From the IMG/VR virus record IMGVR_UViG_2703718821_000011: a DNA stretch of 39,324 nt. The stretch is one strand, 5' to 3'. The position numbers and the translations under genes are program-made. The stretch's first letter is position 1, and each line of letters opens with the position of its first letter. The notes beneath the pieces were generated by a model. That model searched no databases. It was not told the DNA's origin and saw nothing but the letters and a program-made list of their open reading frames with translations. Below, piece after piece: positions 1-19,502 of this stretch. The stretch is from a virus (Duplodnaviria; Heunggongvirae; Uroviricota; Caudoviricetes).

Positions 1-305
1 TCATGATGAACCTCGGCTAACAAAGTGTTCGCAAGCAGCTGCAAAGCGATCCAGTCCGGTCGTCACCTCTTCTTCGCTGACATTGAGCGCAGGCGCAAAA
101 CGCACCACGTTGCCACCCGCAATCAGTACCATCACGCCTGCTTTCGCCGCTTCCTGAGAGATCTGTTTCGCTTGCCCGGCGTAATCGGCATTCAGTACAC
201 AGCCAATCAGCAAACCTAAGCCGCGAACTTCACTGAACAAACCATAGCGGTGATTAATAGTATTAAGACGCTCAACAAACCAGTCGTGACGCTGTTTAAC
301 GCCAT
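1..305 (-). CDS. astC: Host succinylornithine/acetylornithine aminotransferase (AstC/ArgD family), 3' terminal ~100 codons only; gene interrupted by prophage insertion
   Basis: Minus-strand translation ends ...[96 protein letters not shown], which I recognise as the AstC C-terminus; similarity stops abruptly near nt 305 where phage-end sequence begins. Exact junction uncertain by a few bp. Confidence 0.7.
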
Positions 306-436
306 TAATATAGCGCGGCGATTTTTTTGATACCGATTTGCATTTCATTTGATACTGCTGAAAAACGCCGATACGCAACTTATTTGATACTAAATCGGCG
401 CTTTTCTTTTGAGTTTTAGAATGAGTTTTTAAGCGC
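306..436. repeat. Prophage right-end terminal region with three direct TTTGATAC repeats, candidate transposase end-binding sites
   Basis: TTTGATAC at ~326-333, ~348-355 and ~383-390, between the host junction and the mom stop codon; Mu-family ends carry multiple spaced transposase binding sites. Terminal dinucleotide could not be fixed. Confidence 0.45.
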
Positions 437-1174
437 TCATTCACTCTCTTTCAAACCAGTTTTAACTGTTTGTGGTTTTGGGTAAGGCTGGACTTTGAAT
501 AGCTTTGTGTTGAGGCGTTTTTTGGCCCTCTTGTTCAGAAACCGGATGTAACGAAACTGTCGGAACTTATGAACATTGGCTCTGTCAATATTAGCCCTCA
601 GATGTTCACCTCGTTGTCCGCCTCGTTTAATGGCATTCCTGCAAATCTCGTGATACCACTCGCCATCAAGTTCATAGAATATTGATTCATGGCTGCCTAC
701 ATAATCAAAATTGCTTGCCTGATACACGACACCAAGACAGCCACAACGCTCATCTGCAAACGACTGAACCCACTGTACCTGCGGATAAAGCTGCCTGATT
801 AGCTTGAGCGCGTAACTGATTGCCCTTGATTCGGAGTTTCTCGGCATACAGTCATGCAGCCATAGCCGGTTAAGCTCCATATATTCTCGGTTCTGCGTAC
901 CCGTTACGACGCGTGCACCACTGTTTGGGTTAAGGGCGTAACCCCATTGCATTACGCCAACAAGTTCCCGTTCTGAAAATATGCCCAGATGAAGGTAGGA
1001 GTTATTTACGAAACGGTGGCTGTAATGTTTATTGACGATGACCAGTCTGGCCAGCCAGCAACTTATTGTCTCAACCCGCAACTCACGGGAGCCATAACCA
1101 ACGATATTGTCGTTATAGCGAATAAGTTCAGGCGTGCTGATGATTCGGGATGTGACTTGCTTTCTGTTCCCCAC
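437..1174 (-). CDS. mom: Mom-like DNA modification protein (anti-restriction); true start may be internal to the ORF
   Basis: 245-aa ORF immediately downstream of and overlapping a Com homolog, last gene before the prophage end, exactly as in Mu. Assignment is by position and com linkage, not by recalled sequence identity. Confidence 0.6.
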
Positions 1175-1328
1175 GACAGGATTTCCTTGTGTATGTGGGG
1201 TGCTCTGTGGCGCTCGGAGATGTGATTTGATTGAGGGTTTTACAGCGCGGACATTTTACTTCCAGATAACTGAAACTGGCCCGTGCCAGTAGCTTATTGC
1301 AGTGTCGGCACCGTATGTTTCGATACAT
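1128..1328 (-). CDS. com: Com, zinc-finger translational activator of mom
   Basis: [30 protein letters not shown]... matches the Mu Com pattern (IRCKNCNKLL...IRCPRCK); overlaps the mom 5' end. ORF is open up to 1373, so a longer N-terminus is possible. Confidence 0.75.
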
Positions 1329-1369
1329 GGCCGCATAACCTCCTGCTTTGTTGTTGATGCCTTTCTCAT

Positions 1370-1550
1370 GCAATCGATCGACAAAAACGATCGATTCGAT
1401 TTGTTTAATTGATACAACAAATAGATTGAAAAGTCATCAACAATGATTCAGGTAGGTGATTATTTACTTAAAGAAAACGAAGAGTTAGGTGGTGAAAACG
1501 ATCATAAAATGATCATTTTATTGACTTTTTATATAGTGAAGGTAGGATCG
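1370..1550 (-). promoter_or_regulatory. Candidate mom operon control region: GATC (Dam) site cluster including a perfect 9-bp inverted repeat AATCGATCG-N7-CGATCGATT
   Basis: GATC at ~1376, ~1389, ~1500, ~1511, ~1546 in an AT-rich stretch just upstream of com. In Mu, Pmom is controlled by Dam methylation of upstream GATC sites (OxyR binding) and by C protein. Confidence 0.45.
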
Positions 1551-1914
1551 CGCGTATATGTAGTATGTTTCAAATCAATGGGATACTACATACATAAAGA
1601 GCGACCCAGATAGCGCGAACTATTCTGGGCCGATTTAGACAATTTTGCATCAATGCTTTACTTCGAGCTCGTGGCGTATCCTATGATATTCCCCAGTCTC
1701 CTGTAAAGCAGAGATGCATAAAAAGGAGATCTTTATCATGGATGAAAGAGCCTGTTTGCCCTGCCTGTAAGACTCCCTTACAGCTCATCTATCGCCGTTC
1801 TCGATCTCAAAATGGCAAGACATACAAACCCAAAAATGCTTCCTGTTTCAGGATGCTGATATGTCCTGCCTGTTCTCCCAGGAGGGAAAATACACAAAAC
1901 GTGCATTAACAAAC

Positions 1915-1947: not shown

Positions 1948-2193
1948 TTACATCATAGTACCGTCAGTTCCGGGCTGAACCGGCTCTGGTTGCTCTACGG
2001 GTTGAGGATCATTTTCCGTGCTGTTTTCAGCCGGAGAACGGCCAACCATTCGGGCCAGCACTTCATCAACATATGCGTCGATTTGTGCCTCAAAATCCTT
2101 GCGAACCTGCGCCTTCAGCACGCGGTTCACTTCTTCAGAATAAAGTGCCTGTTTGACAAGCTCTTCAGTAACCGTGCCTTTAATCTCTGGCAT
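1948..2193 (-). CDS. Hypothetical acidic 81-aa protein (cargo)
   Basis: Protein-like composition (MPEIKGTVTEELVKQALYSEEVNRVLKAQVRK...), AAGGAG Shine-Dalgarno about 7 nt upstream of the ATG. No recognisable domain. Confidence 0.55.
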   Translation of the reverse strand: MPEIKGTVTEELVKQALYSEEVNRVLKAQVRKDFEAQIDAYVDEVLARMVGRSPAENSTENDPQPVEQPEPVQPGTDGTMM

Positions 2194-2228: not shown

Positions 2229-2411
2229 TCAGAGCGGGGTCGGGTCGTTTGGGGATGACGGTGCCTGTGCTGTTTTACTGAGTTTTTCAGCTGCCGCATC
2301 ATCAATTTTACGGCGAATATAATTTCTGATGACCTTATAACCGCCGCTCACCAGATATAACGCACTGACCACAGCGCAGAAATAAAGCAGCATTGTATGA
2401 ACGAATGTCAT
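2229..2411 (-). CDS. Hypothetical 60-aa small membrane protein (one N-terminal TM helix, basic juxtamembrane segment)
   Basis: MTFVHTMLLYFCAVVSALYLVSGGYKVIRNYIRRK...; AAGG-type RBS upstream; located in the cargo block. Confidence 0.5.
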   Translation of the reverse strand: MTFVHTMLLYFCAVVSALYLVSGGYKVIRNYIRRKIDDAAAEKLSKTAQAPSSPNDPTPL

Positions 2412-2523
2412 ATAACCTTACCTTTGATATTGACTACATAATTCGTTATCGGGTAAAAACATCGAAGCGACTGATAACCACTCCTTCGGGAGTATTTTTA
2501 TTTTCCTTTATGGGTTAGGTAGC

Positions 2524-2559
2524 TCCCGCCAGCCATATCATGACCGGCGGGATTTTTTT
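2524..2559 (+). terminator. Rho-independent terminator on the plus strand (GC stem TCCCGCC...GGCGGGA followed by T7)
   Basis: Stem-loop followed by TTTTTTT on the plus strand only; overlaps the stop codon of the minus-strand esterase gene. It would stop rightward transcription entering the esterase gene antisense. Confidence 0.55.
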
Positions 2560-4567
2560 ATTCTGTTACCGCTTTTTTCACTTCCACCACAATGCTGTCA
2601 ATCAGCACCGGGTAAGTTGCATTTTTGGTGATATCCGTTACGCGGAGTTTGTCCACCGGGAAAGTTCCTACTGGTGACTGCGTCAGGGTAAACGCGGCAC
2701 CATCCTGACCATCAATAACCGGAATAACCTGAAGGCTGTTATTTCCTGCAAAACGGAAGGCCAGCGTATGCCATTCATTATCAAATGCACCAAAGGTTCC
2801 CAGTTTCTGGTTATTTGTTGCCACTTTTGCATTGTGGTACATCACATTCAGGTCTTTTGCGTCTGTCTGGATGTAGAACGATGCCAGCAGATTATTCCCT
2901 GCATCCCCTGTCAGGGTGACACCCTGCGGCAGAGAGGAAACCGGCCAGTAAAGCGCCATGACATACTGGTTTGCCACCAGGTCGCCAGGTACTTTAAAAC
3001 GACAACTGATTAAACCACCATTTTTCAGCAGTTCAGCACCAGTACCGGCATCATGAGCCAGATACCAGGATGATTTACCTGTTTCCTTGGTCAGTTTCAT
3101 TGCCTTACCACCTGTGCCTCCTGCATCACTGATAATTTCAGCTTTACCGCCAGCCGGCTCCCAGCCCTGGGCTTTCAGATTTCCTTCTGACTCACTGACA
3201 CGGTAAGACAGCAGTGTTGTGGTTACTGCTTCAGTTTCAGAAGATGGAACATCGGCTTTTACTGTGGTTCGCCCTGCATGAGTCAGAACAGCCGTGGCCA
3301 GACGGTCAGAAATAATACCCCGGCGCGCCCAGGCACTGAAATGGCTGGCCCGGTCCGCAGATGTCCAGGTAGCGGCACTGTTACGCCACGTTGAGCCGTA
3401 ATAACCAATGGATTCAATATCCGGGTCTTCTGCCGGATTGTTGGTGGGTACATTCACGCCATTTTCATCTGTCATTAATGGAACGAAATGAATGTTTTTA
3501 TCTGTTTTGTTTTTGTAGCCGCCATAGATTGCCTGGTATGCTGGTTCATTTTTCTGTTTCCAGAAATACGTGGTATCGCCACAAATCCACGGAACGCCAG
3601 CAGCACTGCCACCGGTACACTGTTCCGCCTGTTCAGCCAGGTCTGCGCGGAATTTTTCCACCATCGCCAGAAACAGCGCAGAATGCTCCGTCGGCTTCGC
3701 ATCAATATCAAACTCGCCCTGCATCCACACCACAGCAAGCAGGCGGTTTTTCGGGTTCTTCGCCAGTGCCGCTTTTGTCCGGCTGATTAAGTCCTTATAC
3801 AGCGGCTTATCCACACCCCAGCGGGCTGAGTCCTCTGAAGCACCCGTGCTGTCACTGTACGTGCCGTCAGCACCCGCCGTGAATGCAGAACCACCACGGC
3901 AGCAGGGAACCAGCAGAATCCCCGCATCTGCCGGAATAAACGGCAGCAGTTTTTTGGCAATGTGAAGCCCCTGACCCACGGTGCCATATTGCCCTTTAGC
4001 CACATCCGCTTTCGGGTGATTTTTTCCACTCATATCCTGCACATCATGCAGACAGTGGTCGGCCAGAATGATGTCGTTATACTGACAGGCTTTACCTCCC
4101 GGCGTGACTGTACTGCGACGGGCTAACTGCATAATACGCGGTTCGGGGCGGTCATATGTCTCCGGCAGTGGCAGACCTTCACCGTAAGCCATACCGTTTG
4201 ACTGACCAGCAAGAACCACCACGTAATACCAGGAAGGGGAGCTGGAAGCAGTTTCATTTCCTGACGGACGGGTATGTGTTTCAGCATTATCCCAGTCTGA
4301 CGGTTCAGCAGTACCGGCAACATCAGCACTTAACGGAATGACCGCACCAATACCCGCTCCGGTAATTTCCACACTCGGATCACCGGATACTGGCCTTACC
4401 CACAGGCAATCCCGTGTATTAAAACTGATGAGACAGTCAGCAAATGTCATTCCTCCTTTTGTTTCGGCCGGAGGAAAGGGAGCCTCAAGAAATGCCGCTG
4501 TACCACCGGAAACTTTAACAGTAAAGTTTCCGGGCATTGATGATAGTTGAACCCATTTGGACGTCAT
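2558..4567 (-). CDS. Cargo protein: SASA/SGNH-family carbohydrate esterase (sialate O-acetylesterase-like) with an N-terminal ~110-aa domain and a C-terminal ~250-aa beta-rich domain
   Basis: Motifs VVVLAGQSNGMAYG (GQSN block with catalytic Ser) and VVWMQGEFD (WxQGExD block) are hallmarks of the SASA esterase family. No obvious signal peptide. Sits between gin and com-mom, where Mu has no gene. Confidence 0.65.
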   Translation of the reverse strand: MTSKWVQLSSMPGNFTVKVSGGTAAFLEAPFPPAETKGGMTFADCLISFNTRDCLWVRPVSGDPSVEITGAGIGAVIPLSADVAGTAEPSDWDNAETHTRPSGNETASSSPSWYYVVVLAGQSNGMAYGEGLPLPETYDRPEPRIMQLARRSTVTPGGKACQYNDIILADHCLHDVQDMSGKNHPKADVAKGQYGTVGQGLHIAKKLLPFIPADAGILLVPCCRGGSAFTAGADGTYSDSTGASEDSARWGVDKPLYKDLISRTKAALAKNPKNRLLAVVWMQGEFDIDAKPTEHSALFLAMVEKFRADLAEQAEQCTGGSAAGVPWICGDTTYFWKQKNEPAYQAIYGGYKNKTDKNIHFVPLMTDENGVNVPTNNPAEDPDIESIGYYGSTWRNSAATWTSADRASHFSAWARRGIISDRLATAVLTHAGRTTVKADVPSSETEAVTTTLLSYRVSESEGNLKAQGWEPAGGKAEIISDAGGTGGKAMKLTKETGKSSWYLAHDAGTGAELLKNGGLISCRFKVPGDLVANQYVMALYWPVSSLPQGVTLTGDAGNNLLASFYIQTDAKDLNVMYHNAKVATNNQKLGTFGAFDNEWHTLAFRFAGNNSLQVIPVIDGQDGAAFTLTQSPVGTFPVDKLRVTDITKNATYPVLIDSIVVEVKKAVTE

Positions 4568-4666
4568 AATAATCAGCCTGTTCCTGAATAAACTGAATTA
4601 TCATATCCACAGACCGATAAACGCCATTTTGCGTTAATTCAGTAAAGGCCCAACAAAGAGAGCGTC

Positions 4667-5227
4667 TTATTTTTCCGAAACGCTCGCAGGATAATAACGA
4701 TAAAGGGTTGAAAGACCGATATCAAAAATAAGTGCCACCTGTCTTCGACTGACACCCCCGGCCAGTAAACGCCCGACCTGCTCGTATTGTTCCTGCGTGA
4801 GACGGCGGGGTCTGCCGCCGGTTCGTCCCCTTTCACGGGCAGCTGCAAGACCAGCCCGTGTCCGTTCGACAATTAATTCACGCTCCATTTCTGCCAGCGC
4901 ACCCATTATGTGAAAAAAGAAGCGCCCCATGGGGGTTGACGTATCAATGTTGTCAGTAAGACTACGAAAATTTATCCCCTGTTGCTGTAATTCATCTGTC
5001 AGCGCAACAAGGTGGCGCATACTGCGCCCCAGCCTGTCCAGTTTCCAGACCATCAGCGTGTCACCGGGTTTTAGTTTCTTCAGTGCCCGCTTCAGTCCCG
5101 GCCGCTGTGTCGTTTTACCACTCATTTTGTCTTCAAAAATCTGCTCACATCCTGCACATTCCAGCGCATTTCTTTGTAAACCGGTGTTCTGGTCATTTGT
5201 TGATACGCGTATATAGCCAATCAGCAT
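4667..5227 (-). CDS. gin: Gin/Hin/Pin-family serine recombinase (DNA invertase)
   Basis: MLIGYIRVSTNDQNTGLQ... N-terminal resolvase/invertase catalytic motif, C-terminal HTH; adjacent to the gix-flanked segment and transcribed away from it, as in Mu. Confidence 0.85.
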   Translation of the reverse strand: MLIGYIRVSTNDQNTGLQRNALECAGCEQIFEDKMSGKTTQRPGLKRALKKLKPGDTLMVWKLDRLGRSMRHLVALTDELQQQGINFRSLTDNIDTSTPMGRFFFHIMGALAEMERELIVERTRAGLAAARERGRTGGRPRRLTQEQYEQVGRLLAGGVSRRQVALIFDIGLSTLYRYYPASVSEK

Positions 5228-18554: not shown

Positions 18555-19502
18555 TTACAGATAATCCGCGACAACCAGCTCCAGCTTGCCCTTCATCTCG
18601 TTAGAGACGGTTGCGTTTCCGTCTGCGAACAGTTCACGCTCCAGCAGCTGCACCGCCTGTTTTTCCAGCGAGGTGGGGACAACAATATGGGTGGGTTTAA
18701 TGCCGAGTTTGCGGCCACCGTCAGCGGTAAATTCGCGCATGGCTGACCAGCCGTGCCACAGTGCATCCAGCGTCAGCGGTGACTGCATCATGTAGGCCAT
18801 CTGCCAGAAGCCGTAGCCCACATTGCGACGGGCGGATGCACCAAACACAAATTCGTTATCGGTGAATGCGCGACCTTCATCGACTTTGGTCTGGGCAACC
18901 AGTTCAGCCTTACGGCGATCCTGATAAATCAGCGGTTTTACCGCGCGGGAGCAGTCAAGCAGATACCAGGCCGGACCGCTGTAATCAGCCTGTGCGCCGA
19001 CAGAGCCGGTTTTTGCCACAAACATATTGCTGACCATCTGCGCATCCCCGGAGCCATCCACTTTGGGGTAAACCGGATGTTCGGTATCAAAGAAGTTCTG
19101 ACCGTCATAGCAGGCCGCACTGATCCCGTCACGCAGGGCAGCAAAGACCAGCTCATCCGGTTGTACCGCCGCAGCGCGCCCCATCTCCTGGAACAACGGG
19201 GAATAAATACCGAGGTTGTCGTCTTCGAAGTCATCGCGGCTAATGGCGACAGTGCCTTCAAAAGTTTTGTTCACGATGGCATAGCCATAGGCTTTCATCT
19301 TCTCGATGACGCGGGAGCCGATCCACTCACGGAACTGCGGGAACTGCCCCAGCCAGCCGTAGGTGTTGGATTTCGATGTGGAGGGCACGGTCATCGCAAT
19401 TTTTTTGTACTGCGACGGGGCCATGGACATCCCGGCCTGAAAATCAGAACGGTAGCCCGTCATCAGGGCGGTGATCATCGCCGGTGTAATCGGGGTAGGC
19501 AT
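18555..19502 (-). CDS. Major capsid protein (Mu gp34, T)
   Basis: 315 aa immediately downstream of the protease/scaffold gene; size and position match Mu T. Confidence 0.8.
   Translation of the reverse strand: MPTPITPAMITALMTGYRSDFQAGMSMAPSQYKKIAMTVPSTSKSNTYGWLGQFPQFREWIGSRVIEKMKAYGYAIVNKTFEGTVAISRDDFEDDNLGIYSPLFQEMGRAAAVQPDELVFAALRDGISAACYDGQNFFDTEHPVYPKVDGSGDAQMVSNMFVAKTGSVGAQADYSGPAWYLLDCSRAVKPLIYQDRRKAELVAQTKVDEGRAFTDNEFVFGASARRNVGYGFWQMAYMMQSPLTLDALWHGWSAMREFTADGGRKLGIKPTHIVVPTSLEKQAVQLLERELFADGNATVSNEMKGKLELVVADYL

Follow-up and report, generated by a model that had tools for sequence, protein, structure and literature searches.

The chromosomal sialate O-acetylesterase NanS (YjhS) of Escherichia coli, whose structure has been solved (3PT5), is a single-domain enzyme of about 326 residues that belongs to the nan regulon. 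Lambdoid Shiga toxin (Stx) phages encode NanS-p (L0105/z1466 in 933W, vb_24B_21/gp84 in phi24B), in which a SASA domain is joined to a C-terminal DUF6645 domain. Few non-toxin prophage genes of enterohaemorrhagic E. coli have a demonstrated fitness function; NanS-p is among them, and it has so far been treated as a feature of lambdoid phages. All nanS-p alleles tested from EDL933 and O104:H4 encode active esterases on 5-N-acetyl-9-O-acetylneuraminic acid (Neu5,9Ac2) and mucin O-glycans; mono-, di- and tri-O-acetylated sialic acids of mucins are among their substrates, and the enzymes support growth with Neu5,9Ac2 (PMC8065619, PMC8319020). In phi24B, gp84 is reported to be a structural protein: hexamers of its DUF1737 domain plug the central hexons in a T=9 capsid, with processing of the protein at its inter-domain linkers (bioRxiv 10.64898/2026.04.10.717836), an SSP motif being the proposed autoprocessing site. 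Here, a NanS-p-type esterase gene was analysed in a Mu-like prophage carried on a 39,324-nucleotide stretch of viral DNA (IMG/VR record IMGVR_UViG_2703718821_000011; the window). The gene lies between the invertase gene gin and the com-mom operon, and its product carries, in place of DUF1737, an unrelated N-terminal domain. This domain is strictly paired with Mu-type phages, while the esterase bodies behind it are exchanged.

The esterase and its relation to NanS

The open reading frame (ORF; 2558..4567, minus strand) starts with ATG and encodes 669 amino acids (aa). Residues 104-428 match E. coli NanS (3PT5, E 2e-118), with 57.8% identity over 320 aligned positions, and the Pfam SASA family (PF03629) matches residues 116-312 (E 6e-12; 46.0 bits against a gathering cutoff of 24.8). 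The motif VVVLAGQSNGMAYG begins at residue 116 and VVWMQGEFD at residue 279. GQSN (Ser123), CCRGG (222-226), QGE (283-285) and RASH (His409) align residue for residue with 3PT5, in which Ser123 and His409 fall on the GQSN serine and the RxSH histidine at chain positions 30 and 312. The catalytic residues of NanS are presumably those numbered Ser19 and His301. The window esterase and NanS thus share the SGNH/SASA fold family together with the GQSN serine, QGE and the RxSH histidine, whereas the phage-encoded protein has N- and C-terminal modules added to the single domain of the chromosomal enzyme.

The motifs described for SGNH/SASA enzymes are the block I GxSN serine, the block II glycine, the (H)QGE block and the block V histidine (PMC9487903, PMC10462455). 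The block V aspartate of classical SGNH enzymes is absent from EcNanS (PMC9487903), and a Ser-His-Asp criterion is therefore inapplicable to the NanS family. The preliminary description of this locus had put forward that triad as a test, for which it is ill suited; Ser123 and His409 are conserved, and the window esterase has an aspartate (Asp405) four residues before the catalytic histidine, where NanS has a leucine.

Downstream of the catalytic domain, the solved NanS-p domain with a lectin-like jelly-roll fold (6YP6, E 8e-112) aligns with residues 449-664, and DUF6645 (PF20350) matches residues 514-632 (E 4e-70). This region was predicted to be beta-rich, with a predicted local distance difference test score (pLDDT) of 70-89. 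In PHROGs, phrog_143 covers residues 62-667. The NanS-p encoded by an Stx2a-converting lambdoid phage, where the gene is annotated yjhS, shares 80% identity with residues 100-669. Both proteins have disordered Ser/Pro/Thr-rich linkers between their modules and lack a signal peptide; in the window esterase, hydropathy gave neither a signal peptide nor a transmembrane segment (maximum Kyte-Doolittle(15) 0.85 in the first 60 aa; maximum Kyte-Doolittle(19) 1.38 over the whole protein). Identical or near-identical proteins are encoded on more than 1000 contigs, and the ORF is therefore a real conserved gene rather than a chance reading frame. Judging by these sequence matches, the gene is very probably the Mu-prophage form of NanS-p, a phage-borne 9-O-acetyl-N-acetylneuraminate O-acetylesterase. 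The chemistry expected by homology is the de-O-acetylation of Neu5,9Ac2 and related mucin sialic acids. Databases already name the product 'sialate O-acetylesterase' or 'DUF6645 domain-containing protein'.

The preliminary description had placed a 669-aa ORF between gin and com-mom, with both SASA motifs, and had called its product an SASA/SGNH-type esterase with flanking domains and no signal peptide; all of this was borne out. It had expected the SASA domain at roughly residues 115-410. A Pfam match is present, with a shorter span than expected, and the 3PT5 alignment comes close to the predicted extent. Its C-terminal residues without a recognisable motif prove to contain about 220 residues of DUF6645; the description had missed the known NanS-p family, with its solved C-terminal domain, and the residence of the gene in a phage family.

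Linker 2 (window 3218-3277) contains a 10-aa indel, SETEAPVPSP, that forms a direct repeat; the 669-aa and 679-aa alleles are both common. In linker 1, SSSP (residues 108-111) was considered as an autoprocessing site of the phi24B SSP type, but its position is not homologous in the alignment and it was given no weight.

N-terminal domain, phage type and prevalence

Lambdoid NanS-p starts with DUF1737 (residues 3-53), whereas the window esterase has an unrelated all-beta domain of about 86 aa, followed by a longer linker. Residues 1-99 showed no BLASTP similarity to lambdoid NanS-p, and DUF1737 (PF08410) gave no match in the window esterase even at E<=10, against 1.6e-11 for a lambdoid control. 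The predicted fold is all-beta, with confidence, unlike the helix plus three strands of DUF1737. Neither a Pfam match nor a significant fold match was obtained for the domain, and no tail-spike-like trimerisation fold or adaptor fold was detected in it. As far as we can tell, this replacement of DUF1737 by a Mu-type-specific domain is new. A literature search found no text pairing NanS-p with Mu-like phages; the terms Mu-like and acetylesterase co-occur only for the genome of Acinetobacter baumannii ATCC 19606.

A word-indexed search with the N-terminal 110 aa returned near-identical E. coli fragments only, and an exhaustive phmmer search of the domain against 1.84 billion representatives gave five matches. 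Those judged credible are partial sequences that share this architecture, among them a Salmonella enterica lineage with 28% identity in the domain, and in these matches the domain was seen fused to NanS-type esterases only. One match, to a repetitive Gly/Ala/Val-rich protein of 1445 aa (P0128), was regarded as compositional noise. An alignment scan of species-representative genomes, limited to one genome per species and a narrow pattern, found no locus with the domain, although Salmonella has it. Between two E. coli lineages the domain has a pN of 0.23 against a pS of 0.78 (saturated), and its dN/dS against a close allele is 0.10. The domain is under purifying selection, and is therefore a functional module rather than a fusion scar.

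All IMG/VR loci encoding the N-terminal domain (34) were fetched and their neighbours classified by tblastn. Together with four assembly loci, two complete-genome loci and one Salmonella locus, they lie without exception in Mu-type contexts, and DUF1737 is found in none of them. Where the flank exists, the IMG/VR loci have gin and/or Mu gp47/gp48 upstream, and DUF1378, DUF826 and com-mom, or com with a C5 methyltransferase, downstream. In the Salmonella locus, the gp43-gp48 genes and an invertible fibre segment precede gin, and two small ORFs separate gin from the esterase. In this S. enterica Mu-like prophage (L046), the esterase with the 28%-identical domain is truncated at contig ends in 8/8 cluster members, which suggests that the Salmonella esterase body, too, is a multi-copy repeat in those genomes.

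Behind the one N-terminal domain stand no fewer than three different esterase bodies. The body of the window esterase is the one that is 80% identical to the lambdoid body. A second lineage has an N-terminal domain 61% and a body 67% identical to those of the window esterase. In a third (L019-L022) the N-terminal domain is 97-98% identical and the body 52-56%, the switch falling directly after ...ASSSPSWYYV. The N-terminal module is thus strictly paired with the phage type while the esterase bodies are exchanged, an arrangement that is new as far as we can tell.

Chimeric junctions were also found within or beside the esterase gene. P0143 joins DUF1737 to a Mu-type body and is 99% identical to the Mu-type protein P0084 from residue 109; its recombination breakpoint, like that of L019, falls in linker 1. 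P0071 has a DUF1737 N-terminus and a Mu-type body, followed by Mu com-mom. L023 and L028 carry the reciprocal junction, with a lambdoid holin and endolysin coming after the Mu-type esterase. These junctions look like recombination products of Mu-like and lambdoid prophages in one chromosome. A flow of esterase bodies from bona fide lambdoid phages was considered, but among deposited phages no lambdoid protein matches the type-2 or type-3 body at more than 62-70% identity. Because no deposited lambdoid phage carries those bodies at high identity, P0071 and P0143 may be chromosomal inter-prophage chimeras. Mu-like and lambdoid prophages recombine at this shared cassette, which is as such a possible source of chromosomal rearrangements in E. 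coli strains that produce Shiga toxin (STEC). L045 is among the loci with such junctions, and L028 has an inverted DUF826-com-mom segment beyond the lambdoid holin and endolysin. The chimeric junctions suggest inversions or deletions by recombination between cassette copies.

The prophage family is the known Mu-like family of Sp18 (Sakai) and Phi804-3 (FRIK804) (PMC7430833), and FRIK804 is among the genomes that match the N-terminal domain DNA. In 5,426 complete E. coli genomes, the head genes of Sp18-type prophages were found at 274 places (234 genomes) and their com-mom at 285 places (233 genomes). The N-terminal domain DNA occurs at 246 places in 205 genomes, all at least 95% identical, and a second, diverged allele at 39 places in 28 further genomes. 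The resulting 285 places equal the com-mom count; the gene is therefore effectively fixed in the Sp18-type family of E. coli rather than sporadic, and the word cargo in the preliminary description is misleading. The divergent members inspected individually (mouse strain M1, strain 23CRST049 and four assembly or metagenome contigs) each carry the cassette in the same slot. About 4% of complete E. coli genomes contain this family, which is enriched in STEC; its own fixed copy adds to the nanS-p gene dosage of these pathogens.

The genes gin, com and mom are homologous to those of Mu, D108 and SfMu, and in the same order and orientation (DNA identity to Mu 74.5% for gin and 71% for mom). Mu, D108 and SfMu lack the esterase. 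In Mu, gin is followed directly by com-mom, as had been noted earlier, with a gap of only 95 bp, and D108 and SfMu have in total about 1.6 kb and 1.1 kb after gin. These short stretches therefore leave no room for the approximately 3.3-kb insert of the window prophage. Fixation in all related Mu-like phages had been named beforehand as a finding that would speak against the cargo description; it holds, nearly, for the E. coli Sp18-type family and fails for Mu, D108 and SfMu.

Between the two E. coli Mu-type lineages (window versus L005/L010), the esterase has a saturated pS of 0.66-0.78, whereas 93-96% identity is seen in com, the phage end and the head genes. Alleles of the cassette are older than the split of the backbone, which implies cassette replacement from a wider pool of Mu-type alleles.

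Proposed function and alternatives

By analogy with the characterised homologues, the enzyme would strip O-acetyl groups from mucin sialic acids, so that sialidases and the Nan pathway of E. coli could use them. Because it has no signal peptide, it would meet this substrate only after phage-induced lysis or on the particle. In the mechanism proposed here, the beta-barrel of about 86 aa, which stays with Mu-type phages while esterase bodies swap, would serve for docking of the enzyme to the Mu-type particle or for its oligomerisation there. The correlation of domain with phage type and the phi24B precedent lead us to suggest, tentatively, that the N-terminal domain is a phage-type-specific virion adaptor. 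NanS-p in general might then be a modular, virion-displayed, mucus-modifying enzyme with its own anchor in each of several unrelated temperate phage types of E. coli and Salmonella, DUF1737 in lambdoid phages and the beta-barrel in Mu-type phages, a generalisation that we regard as possible yet doubtful. The strict pairing argues independently, at the level of genomes, for the N-terminus as the part specific to the phage, and fits DUF1737 as a capsid anchor. The phi24B preprint lends plausibility to an auxiliary virion enzyme, one of the roles first suggested for this gene. Sp18 DNA is efficiently packaged (PMC2669165), and particles therefore exist. If the adaptor proposal is true, the Mu-type N-terminal domain is a previously unrecognised virion-docking domain, and a particle-displayed sialate esterase is a selected trait of gut prophages (mucus adherence or penetration), beyond the nutrition of lysogens.

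Several observations weigh against this picture. The phi24B precedent is a preprint on a T=9 podovirus, whereas the window phage is a Mu-type myovirus. NanS-p activity is known from homologues, none of them a Mu-type allele (PMC8065619). The full-length AlphaFold2 model is poor, with a mean pLDDT of 59.5 and mostly below 50 in the catalytic domain. Sigma-70-like sites upstream of the esterase are not above shuffled expectation, and the Mu C box (TTAT-N6-ATAA), which is found in Mu Pmom, does not occur upstream of the gene. Moreover, homology with the lambdoid genes starts only at the SASA domain, and the co-inheritance of the N-terminal domain with Mu-type phages could for this reason merely reflect where homologous recombination can occur.

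The main alternative to a virion adaptor is that the enzyme is simply freed by lysis and that the N-terminal domain has another role, a reading that we consider quite plausible, if short of probable. The esterase would then be a pure lysogenic-conversion or public-good enzyme that never enters the particle: spontaneous induction of the Mu-type prophage would free it from the lysing fraction of lysogens, and the survivors would feed on O-acetylated mucin sialic acids. The N-terminal domain could in that case well be an oligomerisation or carbohydrate-binding module unrelated to the virion. Such an account leaves unexplained the strict pairing of N-terminal module and phage type amid interchangeable bodies, as well as the fixation of the gene when many hosts already have lambdoid copies, and the phi24B homologue proved to be structural.

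The adaptor proposal must also be set against a virion enzyme of another kind, placed on the tail or baseplate, that would aid adsorption by deacetylating O-antigen, capsule or O-acetylated polysialic acid. The depolymerase of the preliminary description is a reading of this kind. The esterase gene adjoins the tail-fibre/gin module, and in M1 directly follows the tail-fibre assembly gene; a weak match to a phrog annotated 'tail protein' covers residues 210-311 (E 4e-5); and cleavage of lipopolysaccharide O-acetyl groups has been raised as an open possibility for NanS-p in a review (PMC8065619). Against these stand the 58% identity of the catalytic domain to NanS, which is specific for O-acetyl sialic acids, and the lack of a detected tail-spike-like or adaptor fold in the N-terminal domain. 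The substrates tested for NanS-p are sialic acids of host mucins, and the O-antigen substrate of the preliminary description is accordingly replaced by O-acetylated sialic acid as the substrate of the family (PMC8065619, PMC8319020). A receptor-modifying role is thus unlikely. An anti-phage exclusion or defence cassette, formed with DUF1378, DUF826 and the opposite-strand zinc-ribbon gene, appears highly improbable. The slot is variable and lies beside mom, an anti-restriction function, the small genes are of unknown function, and a C5 methyltransferase replaces mom in some members; yet the main protein is a bona fide carbohydrate esterase, and in lambdoid phages the module belongs to the late region, beside the lysis genes. 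The four cassette proteins gave no match in PADLOC-DB at E<=0.01, a result that tells against the exclusion system suggested at first.

Cassette partners and flanking regions

The slot between gin and com-mom holds the esterase, a DUF1378 gene, a DUF826 gene and a frameshifted gene on the opposite strand (Table 1). The order esterase-DUF1378-DUF826 is common to lambdoid L004 and all Mu-type loci. In the lambdoid Stx2a phage, the three genes lie in this order between stx2AB and the holin gene. The settings differ: lambdoid nanS-p lies between stx and holin under late-promoter/Q control, whereas the window gene lies between gin and com-mom in a transposable Mu-type myovirus prophage. Only window 2569-4229, from about codon 113 to the stop, shows DNA homology to the lambdoid Stx2a phage, and identity to the lambdoid copies is 53% for the DUF1378 protein and 38% for the DUF826 protein. 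The module, though common to both phage types, is therefore old rather than recently transferred.

Table 1. Features of the esterase cassette and its flanks, in window coordinates.
Feature	Position	Strand	Evidence
nanS-p-type sialate O-acetylesterase, Mu-prophage variant	2558..4567	-	ORF; 3PT5 and 6YP6; Pfam SASA and DUF6645; phrog_143; Stx2a-phage NanS-p
N-terminal domain, residues 1-~86, all-beta, cupin-like mini-barrel (predicted), in place of DUF1737	4310..4567	-	
Linker 1, residues ~87-112, disordered, with SSSP directly before the catalytic domain	4232..4309	-	pLDDT 25-39
SASA/SGNH catalytic domain, residues ~113-430	3278..4231	-	57.8% identity to 3PT5; conserved blocks; Pfam SASA
Linker 2, residues ~431-450, length-polymorphic	3218..3277	-	669- versus 679-aa alleles
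C-terminal lectin-like jelly-roll (DUF6645), residues ~451-669	2561..3217	-	6YP6, E 8e-112; PF20350, E 4e-70
gin-esterase intergenic region, candidate regulatory	4568..4666	-	conserved blocks in alignment
gin (G-segment invertase), upstream flank	4667..5227	-	Resolvase and HTH_7, E 1e-51; 74.5% DNA identity to Mu gin
DUF1378 gene, 60 aa, with a single hydrophobic helix at the N-terminus	2229..2411	-	PF07125, E 1e-38
DUF826 gene, 81 aa, last of the three genes in the conserved module	1948..2193	-	PF05696, E 3e-15
Frameshifted opposite-strand gene	1443..1909	+	ORF pieces 1443..1613 and 1742..1909
com-mom operon, downstream flank, then prophage end	437..1373	-	71% DNA identity to Mu mom
com	about 1126..1326	-	Zn_ribbon_Com
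mom	437..1174	-	Pfam Mom, E 3e-77

The gin-esterase intergenic region (4568..4666) contains blocks conserved between Mu-type lineages, with about 70% identity here; none of the other operon starts in the window has the conserved block TTGAATT..CGCAAAA. Window 2480-2545, immediately 3' of the esterase stop codon, contains two GC-rich hairpins, each with T-runs behind it on the plus strand. These would terminate antisense transcription from the plus-strand gene rather than the esterase transcript.

That plus-strand gene (window 1443-1909) is transcribed towards the esterase cassette and is annotated as a pseudogene in a near-identical genome. Its intact form (L045 3188-3652) encodes 154 aa, belongs to phrog_26524 and ends in a C-terminal CPAC...CPAC zinc ribbon.

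Upstream of com on the minus strand, a GATC cluster at about 1375-1400 is reminiscent of the Dam/OxyR-controlled Pmom region of Mu, while the TTAT-N6-ATAA C box is missing from the place equivalent to Mu Pmom. In L005-L008, L012, L017 and L043, a C5 DNA cytosine methyltransferase (PF00145) stands in place of mom and com is retained, which looks like an alternative anti-restriction module under apparently the same translational control gene. The M1 locus (L009) has no gin; its esterase stands directly after the tail-fibre assembly gene, and a remnant of the gin 3' end lies upstream.

The window holds approximately one entire Mu-like prophage, comprising head and tail genes, an invertible tail-fibre segment and, at about 35-38 kb, the transposase genes; the gpT major head protein is encoded at 18555..19502 on the minus strand. 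The prophage end lies near 305-309, and alignments with other genomes end at 297-309. The host insertion sites of the prophage vary among genomes, as expected of a transposable phage. Window positions 1-308 are host flank and correspond to the 3' part of astC (succinylornithine transaminase), which the prophage insertion disrupts in the source genome.

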